Assembly: GCA_963804645.1 (NCBI GenBank)
Contig: CAWDRG010000016.1
Span: 1 to 14,203 of the forward strand
DNA length: 14,203 bases
Origin: an uncultured Bacillota bacterium
Lineage (GTDB): Bacteria; Sysuimicrobiota; Sysuimicrobiia; Sysuimicrobiales; Segetimicrobiaceae
Reading direction: 5' to 3'
Shown piece after piece: positions 1 to 2,645 of the stretch (its first letter is position 1; each line of letters opens with the position of its first letter). A model generated the notes under the pieces. The model saw only the letters and a program-made list of their open reading frames with translations, was not told where the DNA came from and ran no database searches. The translations under genes were made by a program, and so were the position numbers.

Positions 1-6
1 GATAAG

Positions 7-17
7 ATGAACGAGCC
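7..17 (+). repeat. Left subterminal inverted repeat of the IS
   Basis: ATGAACGAGCC is the exact reverse complement of 1501-1511. Confidence 0.9.
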
Positions 18-84
18 GGCGACCCGCGTAATACGTGGGTTGCCACCAGGACGGAGGCCTATCCACATACGGGGGTGCCGGCTC

Positions 85-1194
85 ATGGATCAGCATAGCA
101 TAGTGGTTGGTCTGGATGTCCACAAAGGGAGCATCACGGCCGCGGTCCTGCCGCCAAACGTTGCGCGGCCTCAGGAGACGTGCACGATCGAGAACGACGC
201 GCGGGCCGTCGAGCGCTTGGTGAAACGGATCATGAAGAACGGGAATGCGGTGTTTGTGTACGAGGCGGGGCCGTGTGGATATACGCTGCACCGGCAGTTG
301 TATCGTCTGGGCTGCCAGGCGGCGGTGATCGCCCCGGGCCTGACGCCCGTGCGTCCCGGCGATCGGGTCAAAACGGATCGGCGTGACGCGGAGAACTTGG
401 CACAACTCTATCGCGCGGGGCAACTCACGGAAATTCGGGTGCCCACCGGGGAAGAGGAAGCGGCCAGAGACCTCGTCCGTGCGCGCGAAGACGCCGTGGC
501 CGACCGGCTGCGCGCCCGACATCGGCTGAGCAAATTTCTCCTTCGTCAAGGACGGCTGTACGATGGCAAGCAAGCGTGGAGTCAGAAGCATTACGCGTGG
601 CTCCGTCAGCAACGGTTTGAGTTGACGTTGGCCCAGCAGACGTTTGATGCGTATCTCCGCGGGGTCGAAGAAGCCGACGCCCGGTTGGCGAGTTTGACCA
701 CCCAGGTGCTCGAACTGGCGCAACGGCCGAGCTATGCGGCGCTTGTGCAAGGCCTGCGCTGTCTGAAAGGCGTCGACACGCTGACCGCGATCACACTGAT
801 TGTCGAAACACAGGACTTCCGGCGCTTTGGGCACGCCCGCGCGTACATGGACTTCACCGGCTTGGTGTGCTCCGAGAACAGCAGCGGAGACAGGACCCGC
901 CGCGGCTCTATTACGAAAGTCGGCAACGCGCATCTCCGCCGTGTCCTGGTCGAAGCGGCCTGGAGCTACTCGCATCACAACAGCAGCGGCGCGACGATCA
1001 CCAAACGACGCCACGGCTGTCCGGCGGCAGTGGTGCAGATCGCCCGCCGTGCGCAGGACCGGCTTCACCGCCGCTACTGGCGCCTGACCCAGCGCAATAA
1101 GCCACGGCCAGTCGCGATCGTCGCCGTCGCGCGGGAGTTGGCAGGATTCGTCTGGGCAATCGCGCATAGCGTGTCGAGCACCACCGCGGCGTAG
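85..1194 (+). CDS. IS110-family transposase/recombinase (N-terminal RuvC-like DEDD domain, C-terminal Tnp domain), 369 aa
   Basis: Motifs VGLDVHK, YEAGPCG, KTDRRDA (D-E-D-D) and C-terminal SENSSG...GSITKVGNAHLRRVLVEAAW, ending AIVAVARELAGFVWA. ATG at 85 preferred because the ATG at 7 lies inside the terminal repeat. Confidence 0.97.
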   Translation: MDQHSIVVGLDVHKGSITAAVLPPNVARPQETCTIENDARAVERLVKRIMKNGNAVFVYEAGPCGYTLHRQLYRLGCQAAVIAPGLTPVRPGDRVKTDRRDAENLAQLYRAGQLTEIRVPTGEEEAARDLVRAREDAVADRLRARHRLSKFLLRQGRLYDGKQAWSQKHYAWLRQQRFELTLAQQTFDAYLRGVEEADARLASLTTQVLELAQRPSYAALVQGLRCLKGVDTLTAITLIVETQDFRRFGHARAYMDFTGLVCSENSSGDRTRRGSITKVGNAHLRRVLVEAAWSYSHHNSSGATITKRRHGCPAAVVQIARRAQDRLHRRYWRLTQRNKPRPVAIVAVARELAGFVWAIAHSVSSTTAA

Positions 1195-1260
1195 AGTACC
1201 AGGAACAGATTCCGAGGATCGACGGACGTGTTCTGGACCTGGAGGCGAAGCAGCGGTCAG

Positions 1261-1410
1261 GAGCATCCTCGAGGGGTCTATGTGGCGGACAGGCTGACGT
1301 CTGTGCCGACCCACGTTCCTAGATTGAGGCAGCTCCCGACGAATCACAATCATGTGCGCTCTGCCCGCTTCGTGCGGGTAACCGCCGAATATCAGAGTGA
1401 TTCACCGTCG
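1261..1410 (+). ncRNA. Putative bridge RNA / seekRNA core (ends approximate)
   Basis: Hairpin 1: 1261-1270 pairs with 1326-1335 and 1281-1292 with 1301-1315, leaving a 10x10 internal loop. Hairpin 2: GAATCAC 1341-1347 pairs with GTGATTC 1397-1403 and 1362-1368 with 1374-1380. Loop sequence ATATCAGA 1389-1396 is identical to IS end 1510-1517. Confidence 0.8.
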
Positions 1411-1494
1411 CGAACGCTTCGCTTCCAGGACCCGAATACGCCGTCCATCCTCTGGGACGACGGAGGGCCGTTCGTGGCTTGACCTACACGGTAC

Positions 1495-1500
1495 TTGACA
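1495..1500 (+). promoter_or_regulatory. -35 box (TTGACA) of circle-junction promoter; partner -10 is TAAGAT at 3-8
   Basis: Consensus TTGACA next to the right IR. Joining the ends at the GA core gives TTGACA-17 nt-TAAGAT. Confidence 0.8.
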
Positions 1501-1511
1501 GGCTCGTTCAT
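1501..1511 (-). repeat. Right subterminal inverted repeat of the IS
   Basis: GGCTCGTTCAT is the exact reverse complement of 7-17. Confidence 0.9.
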
Positions 1512-1512
1512 A

Positions 1513-2106
1513 TCAGACCTCCAGCAGGTCCACCCCGTCGACCACGAACTGCGACCACGACTCGAGGCGCGGGTACGCGGCGCGGAGTTCCTCCCGGCCC
1601 GCAAACGCGCCGGCGAGTTTGGAGGTCTCGCGCACCCGGACGTCCTCCGACGGCAGATCGGCGAGGTACACCAGGCCGAAGTGGACGCGTCCCACCGCCT
1701 GGACATCGTCGTTCAGCGCGCCGATGGGCACGGCGTGCCACCCTGGGGGCAGCGCGACCTCTTCGGTGAGCTCCCGCTTCATCCCGGCGGCGACGCGGTC
1801 CCGCTCGGTGTCGCCGTCCTCCGGGTTGATGTGGCCGCCGAGACCGACCGACAGCTTGTCGCGGAGCCGCGCTTCCGATCCGCCCCGCGTGCGCTCCACG
1901 AGAAAGATCCGGTCGGCGTGGCGGAGGATGACGTATGGGATGATCTGCTTCAGGCTCGCGTCCTCCTCCACGCGGTCGCGCGGCGCGAAGAACGCGTGGG
2001 TGGCGATCGTGTCGAGGTACGCGGGCAGGCCGTCGCGCGAAAATCCATAGAACGCGCCGGAGGGAAAGAGGAGCGCGCGGGGCACCACCAGGACCTGTTC
2101 GGGCAT
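1513..2106 (-). CDS. Predicted NUDIX-family phosphoesterase (YmaB/COG4112-like), 197 aa
   Basis: EQVLVVPR, RDRVEEDASLKQIIPYV, RTRGGSEARL, SVGLGGHINPED, GMKRELTEEV, VGRVHFGLV and LESWSQ are typical of this family; ATG at 2106. Confidence 0.85.
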   Translation of the reverse strand: MPEQVLVVPRALLFPSGAFYGFSRDGLPAYLDTIATHAFFAPRDRVEEDASLKQIIPYVILRHADRIFLVERTRGGSEARLRDKLSVGLGGHINPEDGDTERDRVAAGMKRELTEEVALPPGWHAVPIGALNDDVQAVGRVHFGLVYLADLPSEDVRVRETSKLAGAFAGREELRAAYPRLESWSQFVVDGVDLLEV

Positions 2107-2153
2107 ACCGTCCAGTTTTTCCCGGGGGCGACGAAGTCCTGCGGCGGACCGCG

Positions 2154-2645
2154 TCAGACGACGCGGAACGCCGCGTCCACGAGGACGTCGTCCTCGGCGT
2201 GGATCTTGCCGAGCAGGATGCCCGGGTCGGATCCAAACAGATGCGGCAGGATGAGAGGGAGATCCCCCGGGATGGGGAGCGACGCCACGTCCTCGAGCGG
2301 CACCCACCGGAGCGCGCCCTCGTCGGTCGCCGCGGGGTCCGGGTCGCCGCTCGGCCGCTCGGCGGTGAACGCGAACAGGAGCCACTGCGCGTTCGCCGTG
2401 CGGCTGATCACCGTCAGCACCGCGCGCAGACGAGCCTCAGCGAGGCGCAGGCCCGTCTCTTCGTGCACCTCGCGCAGGCAGGCGTCGTACGGGTCCTCGC
2501 CCGGCTCGATCTTCCCGCCCGGCGCGTTGTACTTCCCTTGGTTGGGCGGGTTGCGGCGGAGGAGCAGCAGCACGCGGTCGCCGTCGCGGATGAAGCACAG
2601 CGTCCGAAGATGGATCGCAGGCGGTCCGGCGCTTTCCTGGGCCAT
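2154..2645 (-). CDS. NUDIX hydrolase, MutT/8-oxo-dGTP diphosphatase-like, about 163 aa
   Basis: Canonical Nudix box GGKIEPGEDPYDACLREVHEETGL, plus TLCFIRDGDRVLLL and EGALRWVP. The start codon is uncertain. Confidence 0.88.
   Translation of the reverse strand: MAQESAGPPAIHLRTLCFIRDGDRVLLLLRRNPPNQGKYNAPGGKIEPGEDPYDACLREVHEETGLRLAEARLRAVLTVISRTANAQWLLFAFTAERPSGDPDPAATDEGALRWVPLEDVASLPIPGDLPLILPHLFGSDPGILLGKIHAEDDVLVDAAFRVV

Follow-up and report, generated by a model that had tools for sequence, protein, structure and literature searches.

The RNA of an IS1111-type insertion sequence in a soil bacterium very probably reads both sides of its insertion site

The first 1516 bases of the window, i.e., the whole stretch of 14203 bases that was analysed, are very probably an intact insertion sequence (IS) of the IS110 family, IS1111 subgroup, a high confidence that extends to our explanation of this element as a whole. 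With similarly high confidence, the RNA encoded by its 3' non-coding end is an IS1111-type bridge (seek) RNA, one internal loop of which is predicted to read both sides of the insertion site. The natural target of the element would be (G/C)CTAG^ACC-Y-Y. The structure of the RNA, the covariation of its guides with flanks and element ends, the empty site and the left flank were all read by comparing related sequences. The window is one complete contig (C16) of the 22 in genome G000, and the assembly has nothing upstream of its position 1. The system adds a clean natural example to a mechanism already reported in 2024 and introduces no new mechanism.

Guide RNAs termed seekRNAs were reported for the IS1111-family elements ISEc11, ISKpn4, ISPa11 and ISPst6 (Siddiquee et al., 2024; PMC11187229). 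In the account given there, the match to the top strand lies 5' of the match to the bottom strand, which is the reverse of the IS110 type. The bridge RNA of IS621 was described by Durrant et al. (2024; PMC11208160) and Hiraizumi et al. (2024; PMC11208158). As described in the former, the IS621 guides each include the core, and as described in the latter, once strands have been exchanged, two handshake bases beside the right guides form pairs with the non-cognate partner.

The recombinase encoded in the window has the N-terminal DEDD (RuvC-like) and C-terminal Tnp domains of the IS110 family, matching PF01548 (DEDD_Tnp_IS110) at 3.2e-18 and 66.4 bits (cut-off 29) and PF02371 (Transposase_20) at 7.1e-20 and 71.6 bits (cut-off 21.3). 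The solved IS621 and ISCro4 transposases are distant matches (E about 1e-5), that of ISCro4 being the better; in the ISCro4 alignment, GLDVHK, YEAGP and KTDRRDA are aligned and SSG falls within the second aligned stretch. Insertion is site-specific, the empty site reading CTAGACC and the filled one CTAG[element]AG ACC, with only AG doubled. The IS1111 subgroup is defined, in the wording of PMC11208160, by subterminal inverted repeats of 7-17 bp and short terminal extensions. The window element has an exact 11-bp inverted repeat, extensions of 5 and 3 nt, a short left non-coding end of 84 nt and a long right one of 322 nt that carries the structured RNA. Thus, its subterminal repeats, end lengths and recombinase domains place it in the IS1111 subgroup. 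The features are listed in Table 1.

Table 1. Features of the window element and positions of the nested inserts in its other copies in genome G000.
Feature	Position	Strand	Remarks
G of the left AG core copy	1	+	left junctions all read ...CTAG^ATAAG
Left terminal extension ATAAG	2-6	+	5 nt from core to inverted repeat; 5 nt in 14/14 left-ended elements
TAAGAT, -10-like hexamer	3-8	+	read from sequence
Left subterminal inverted repeat ATGAACGAGCC	7-17	+	exact 11-nt repeat with 1501-1511
IS110-family recombinase gene	85-1194	+	369 aa; Pfam DEDD_Tnp_IS110 and Transposase_20
Structured bridge/seek RNA region (predicted), ~180 nt	1242-1420	+	stems 1242-1245/1417-1420 and 1253-1256/1405-1408
CCUC, 5' half of target-loop closing stem	1267-1270	+	pairs with GAGG 1326-1329; 98.3% of cells, nearly invariant
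Target loop, 5' strand GGGGUCUA	1273-1280	+	right-target-guide equivalent; 1273-1277 pair with right flank 1517-1521, 1278-1279 with the AG core, 1280 with the T preceding the core
Inner hairpin of target loop	1281-1315	+	stem 1282-1284/1312-1314; 3/3 pairs covary
Target loop, 3' strand UUCCUAGAU	1316-1324	+	left-flank sense; 1316-1320 same sense as left flank, 1321-1322 AG core, 1323-1324 (AU) the element's first two bases
GAGG, 3' half of target-loop closing stem	1326-1329	+	helix 4, same stem as CCUC
Donor-binding arm (predicted)	1343-1401	+	outer stem AUCA 1343-1346/UGAU 1398-1401; 90% of cells paired
Donor loop (predicted), 5' strand CAAUCAU	1347-1353	+	AUC 1349-1351 pairs with GAT (core G and the element's first two bases)
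Donor loop (predicted), 3' strand GAAUAUCAGAG	1387-1397	+	contains the right-end match
TTGACA, -35-like hexamer	1495-1500	+	facing outward; read from sequence
Right subterminal inverted repeat GGCTCGTTCAT	1501-1511	+	exact 11-nt repeat with 7-17
Right extension ATC and AG core	1512-1516	+	end tabulation across relatives
Flanking host gene	1513-2385	-	stop TGA (1513-1515) supplied by the element end
Right target ACCTC (flank)	1517-1521	+	flanks of copies and relatives' empty sites
Nested insert	C17:852863-854349		
Nested insert	C19:114473-115901		
Nested insert	C6:107740-109168		
Nested insert	C21:2098-3521		
Nested insert	C21:1-549		

Alignment A1 joins the 3' non-coding region of the window copy to those of nine loci from species-representative genomes and five from same-family genomes, i.e., 15 related elements in total, all of which are kin and not independent samples. 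Their right ends were located as the inverted repeat ending in CAT followed by 3 nt and 2 nt, and their left ends as 2 nt and 5 nt followed by ATG. The region 1195-1520 of the window folded far better than its shuffles (z = -6.1; second fold, z = -3.6). The consensus fold of the 15 elements consists of two closing stems and two arms, and in the structure as written out its 27 pairs are formed in 92.8% of cells, compared to 38-50% when the partners were slid by 1-3 columns. Compensatory changes occur in 11 pairs, which 0/500 shuffles equalled. Both strands of the target loop are unpaired in the consensus fold (columns 53-63 and 97-108, or window 1271-1281 and 1315-1325). In the single-sequence fold these strands likewise lie between the stem CCUC(GA)/(UU)GAGG and the inner hairpin, yet GGG is paired with UCC inside the loop; the open loop is therefore a reading from the comparison of relatives. 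A search of window 1-2000 against Rfam gave zero matches at E <= 1.

An earlier reading of the window from its sequence only had proposed that this loop binds the target, and the strings on which it relied are exact (GAGGGGTCTA at 1271-1280, TTCCTAGATT at 1316-1325 and GACCTC at 1516-1521). As it had described, GGGGUC (1273-1278) can be matched antiparallel to GACCTC, with a single G-T wobble (G1274-T1520) beside five Watson-Crick pairs. Read in reverse complement, the 5' strand gives TAGACCCC, which shares TAGA with the CCTAGA of the 3' strand. The proposal itself is supported by the 15 related elements, in which matches to the own flanks exceed shuffled pairings on both strands. It placed the guide complementary to the top strand 5' of the same-sense guide, and PMC11187229 sets out this arrangement for the IS1111 seekRNAs. 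The two guides match the two strands of the target and overlap in it.

The core was misplaced in the sequence-only reading. It had been given as GA, and the core that is shared is AG; window position 1 is the G of its left copy, and the A that precedes this G is outside the window and corresponds to the first base of contig C10 (reverse complement). AG stands at both junctions in 13/14 elements having both ends, with the left end of the window copy counted as reconstructed below. The exception is L021, with AG at its left junction and GG at its right one, and G011:C12, which is without a left end, has AG at its right junction. Where the right flank lacks an initial A (G006:C62, G011:C12, L018, L023 and L025-L030), only AG is common, and thus the core is AG and not GA. 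The AU that follows the core on the 3' strand, likewise assigned to the target before, matches the element's own first two bases instead. The two bases after the core are identical to the element's first two in 11/12 elements (AU/AT, AC/AC), and in L023 one of the two is.

Across the 15 elements, the 5' strand makes 62 Watson-Crick pairs with the own right flank at 90 positions (six flank positions per element), compared to 29.3 +/- 5.1 for shuffled pairings, a score that 0/20000 shuffles reached. In a non-redundant set of 12 elements, from which near-duplicates had been removed, the score of the right guide was 52 versus 24.0 (0/20000). At least three uninterrupted pairs starting at the core are found in 14/15 elements. 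The guides and the right flanks they face are compared in Table 2. One exception is L029, whose guide fits its right flank at just 3/6 positions. Another, outside the 15, is G004:C11 (L016/L046, ~6275), whose protein is 96% identical, with the guide ACCAC misfitting the right flank TGGGAC; this misfit may stem from later rearrangement. The left flank of this copy, the closest foreign one, is common to a diverged second copy (L017) over at least 32 nt.

Table 2. Right guides of related elements, as reverse complement, and their right flanks.
Element	Guide (reverse complement)	Right flank
Window	ACCCC	ACCTC
L015	AAACC	AAGCC
G006:C63	AAGTC	AAGTC
G006:C62	TGTCG	TGTCC
G005:C38	AACCG	AACCG
G011:C12	CGCAG	CGCAG
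L018	GAGCC	GAGCC
L020	AAGCG	AAGCC
L021	GGGGC	GGGGC
L023	TCCGT	TCCAG
L025	TGGGT	TGGTG

Six copies of the element are found in G000. All six are identical across 1236-1391, and over the compared length the sole difference between the window copy and the others is at the synonymous base 402, which is A in the window copy and C in four comparable copies (the copy on C19, with a one-base length difference, was left out). Apart from the window copy, four have an assembled left end, preceded by TTCGCTA, TCACCTA, GGTGCTA and TGCGCTA, and the five assembled right flanks are ACCTCC, ACCCCA, ACCTCG, ACCCCG and ACCCTA, i.e., ACC followed by two pyrimidines (Y and Y). From the loop, (TT)CCTA had been predicted to the left of position 1. 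Its CTA is exact in 5/5 copies, but the fourth base is G in 4/5 and TT is not conserved. Similarly, aligning the flanks of the copies, as had been proposed, yields CTA on the left and ACC on the right throughout, but the guide C faces G in 4/5.

A search of relatives with the right flank revealed the orthologous gene end without the element in 11/11 loci; the empty site that relatives keep reads ...GCCTAGACCTCCAGC. The empty allele that the sequence-only reading had suggested looking for was thus retrieved, with CTAGACC and without the element, in two relatives, i.e., G002 (CCTAGACC^TCCAGC, also given as CATGCCTAGACC^TCCAGC; in longer form ...GGGCATGCCTAGACC^TCCAGCAG) and G009 (TCTAGACC^TCCAGC; ...GGTCTAGACC^TCCAGCAG). 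The variants of the site in the other nine loci are CTAGATC (G003 and G006), TTAGATC, CTAGATT, TCAAACC, TTAAACG, TCAGGCC, TCAGATC and TCAGTCC. Given that empty orthologous sites contain them, CTA and ACC are target DNA, not element ends. The flanking host gene ends in TAG, TGA or TAA in the relatives, and the TAG lies in the target-like CTAG.

The relative G002 also served to recover the missing left flank. The 1500 nt upstream of its empty site match G000 only at the start of contig C10 (40-872 and 1872-2355, minus strand), the reverse complement of which ends in ...CATTCGCTA (equal to ...GGCATTCGCTA; in longer form ...GGTGCGGCATTCGCTA) directly before window position 1. The first gene of C10 begins at base 7 and encodes an OGG-like glycosylase, the start codon of which aligns, by translation, with that of the G002 neighbor. 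By this synteny, and with both contigs stopping exactly at the junction, the flank before window position 1 is read as TTCGCTA, with which (TT)CCTA agrees at 4/6 positions without gaps. The filled left junction would then be ...CATTCGCTA followed by GATAAGATG, and the empty site of the window copy would have been GGCATTCGCTAGACCTCCAGC, or ...CATTCGCTAGACCTCCAGC in longer form. A one-base bulge aligning the guide UUC-CUA with TTCGCTA was considered and dropped, the ungapped alignment (7/9) being simpler. The public runs that were found are all of DNA, stored as contigs, and one contig each from X1 and X4 extends beyond the first base of C10, by 25 and 34 letters. Empty sites were also sought for the copies on C17, C6 and C19, but the matches of same-genus relatives begin 209-299 nt off the junction or are absent.

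It is unlikely that only the 5' strand and the core guide the element, with CTAG read by the protein or a mere palindrome and the 3' strand mainly structural. The left-side signal is indeed the weaker one (the 3' strand scores 34 against the own left flank versus 24.2 +/- 2.7 for shuffled pairings, and 27/20000 shuffles reach it). CTAG is nearly invariant in the family, and there is thus little left-side covariation. Beyond CTAG the left guide is weak, since the guide C at -3 (1318) faces G in 4/5 natural sites of G000 and TT is unmatched. The excess is nevertheless unchanged when the core-adjacent base, which is nearly always T, is omitted (24 versus 14.2; 27/20000), and the 3' strand follows flanks that depart from CTAG, i.e., AAGTAG against GAGTAG in L020, GTTTAG against GGTTTAG in L023 and CCGTAG against CCCGTAG in L021/L022. 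In G006:C63 and L017, moreover, CGCTAG stands against CGCTAG.

Much less probable still are two further explanations. If the matches were due to chance or shared ancestry, CTA and ACC would be the element's termini and no RNA would guide it. The flanking triplets are identical across the copies in G000, as element ends would look, but CTAGACC is present without the element in G002 and G009, and the differing right flanks of related elements track their own loop sequences (0/20000 shuffles). In the other explanation, the RNA would be a regulatory or processing element acting in cis on the recombinase transcript and not a guide acting in trans. A promoter and terminator scan of 1100-1560 found nothing, so that no promoter of its own was seen between the gene and the RNA structure. 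A regulatory structure, however, would not require its loops to vary with the host sequence on either side and with the element's ends, and a 660-bp derivative (G006:C63) that has lost most of the gene retains the RNA with a guide fitting its own flanks. A target loop that reads both sides of the insertion site thus remains our explanation by a wide margin of confidence over the former of these two and the latter alike.

The second internal loop of the RNA is, by the same kind of comparison, a donor loop that would read the joined ends of the element. On its 3' strand, which is strongly supported, AUAUCAGA (1389-1396) is identical to 1510-1517, i.e., the right end with the first flank base, and among the 15 elements 100/120 positions of this strand are identical to the own right end, compared to 81.6 for shuffled pairings (0/20000). 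On its 5' strand, where the match is 3-4 nt, (A/G)UC pairs with the core G and the first two bases of the element in 12/14 left-ended elements, and the third of these pairs covaries (A with T, G with C). Comparison across the elements and inspection by eye found no convincing complementarity past 3-4 nt for a longer right-donor guide.

In the proposed mechanism, the bridge (seek) RNA encoded by the 3' non-coding end would have two internal loops. One would read the target, its last two bases matching the element's own first bases, and the second (1347-1353/1387-1397) would read the joined ends, where AUAUCAG has right-end sense and AUC is the complement of the core G and AT. Loaded with this RNA, the recombinase would take the element, as a circular copy, to (G/C)CTAG^ACCYY sites, where strands would be exchanged at the shared AG. 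Production of the RNA, its binding by the recombinase, the circular intermediate and the chemistry of strand exchange are presumed here from the published mechanism of the family. If the ends are joined in a circle, TTGACA, 17 nt and TAAGAT would follow one another and probably form a promoter for the recombinase gene at the junction. In 15/15 relatives, TTGA is found 6-20 nt ahead of the CAT of the right repeat, a count that is complete because the locating pattern matched every relative.

By layout, the window element resembles the IS1111 elements whose seekRNAs are described in PMC11187229, in that the RNA lies downstream of the recombinase gene, the inverted repeats are subterminal and the guides have the same order. 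It differs from the elements described there in its target, a stop-codon-bearing CTAG^ACCYY in a high-G+C soil bacterium. With IS621, as described in the two reports cited above, it has in common the target and donor internal loops, a 2-nt core common to target and donor, and a DEDD and serine recombinase. In IS621, however, the left end encodes the RNA, and its left guide lies 5' of the right one, whereas in the window element the right end encodes it and the order is reversed; the core is AG in the window element and CT in IS621. The two bases of the window element that match the non-cognate partner (the element start) follow the core on the same-sense strand of the left guide, and they may play the role of the IS621 handshake bases.

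In all five other copies in G000, a second IS110-family element (~1.43-1.49 kb) is inserted in reverse orientation between 1391 and 1392. ATA flanks it on either side, and its opposite strand encodes an IS110-family recombinase. This insertion splits the guide RNA gene of the host element in two. An insert at the same host position is found in copies of relatives (L016/L093 in G004 and L094 in G012). Within G000 the nested element occurs only inside the host element, except for one 66-73% similar sequence on C19. The 5' non-coding end of the nested element forms a hairpin with an internal loop, the strands of which are GUCGCGAAUAU and GUUCUGAUAUCU. The former is the sense of window 1383-1392 minus one C, and the latter is the reverse complement of 1389-1397 together with the insert's own first base. 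The nested copy in G004 carries GUCGCCGAAUAU, an exact match to its host. In more distant relatives of the nested element, one in G003 and five in a repeated sequence, the loop strands are different and agree with the left flank of the respective copy. Those five (L096, L097, L099, L101 and L103) are located at one position, after CCTTTAT or CCCTTAT, where the loop strand CCUUUA fits the flank; the repeated sequence may be a transposase gene.

We lean slightly toward the view that the nested element is a hyperparasite, whose RNA would guide its homing into the donor-loop DNA of the host family. The donor-loop stretch has little freedom to change, since its match to the right end of the host element has to be preserved. 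The nested copies are 81-91% identical to one another and the host parts 99.9-100%, which suggests that old nested lineages hop into each new host copy. If this view holds, the window copy alone would be free and self-sufficient, its guide RNA still intact. No other copy is free of both kinds of nested insertion, i.e., this one and the one at the left end described below. The nested element resembles IS1111-type elements that naturally insert into a portion of some other mobile element, but their target is a transposon terminal repeat, whereas the nested element targets the guide-RNA gene of another IS110-family element. A keyword search of the literature from 2024 on found no report of a nested insertion into a bridge-RNA gene, which does not prove that none exists.

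For this IS1111-type branch, the insertion site can be read from the RNA loop of the element closely enough to predict an unassembled flank, which is useful when targets are annotated and when gaps that assemblies leave at insertion sequences are to be closed. The set of known guide-target pairs from nature grows by about a dozen, with an AG core and a two-base match to the element start on the left-guide strand, and these could inform the rules for reprogramming IS1111-type systems. The known mechanism is unchanged, and the nested element is the part most worth further attention.

Several other observations were made on copies and sites of the element. The window element lies between the stop of the host gene (here taken as 1516-2385, minus strand) and, 3 nt on, the glycosylase start of C10 (C10:1-10). 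The TAG stop is replaced by TGA, and the insertion separates the downstream glycosylase gene from its upstream neighbor. The 660-bp derivative mentioned above (L059; G006:C63, about 14150-14810) has kept both ends and the whole RNA, and has a guide of its own (AAGTC/CGCTAG) that agrees with the flanks around it, which is what a non-autonomous element mobilized in trans should show. Contig C3 (1-12) starts with ACCCTC, a predicted right half-site, and the 88%-identical paralogous stretch of C4 (69759-69770) reads GGGTAG^ACCCAC; C14 ends in AAGCTA and C9 in GGCTAGA. No partner ends were matched for C3, C14 and C9, and these ends are suggestive of gaps that may hold unassembled copies of the element.

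The left end of the element is also a site of insertion. The same site, equivalent to window 28-37 and inside an imperfect palindrome (window 21-40), is hit in three copies (C19:112865-113109, C6:106147-106375 and C21:4886-7871), and all three inserts are flanked by a GTAATAC duplication. The inserts on C19 and C6 are short (245 and 229 bp) and have the terminal inverted repeats CTGAATCCGGCGG, while the insert on C21 is 2986 bp long and encodes a DDE_Tnp_1_4 transposase.
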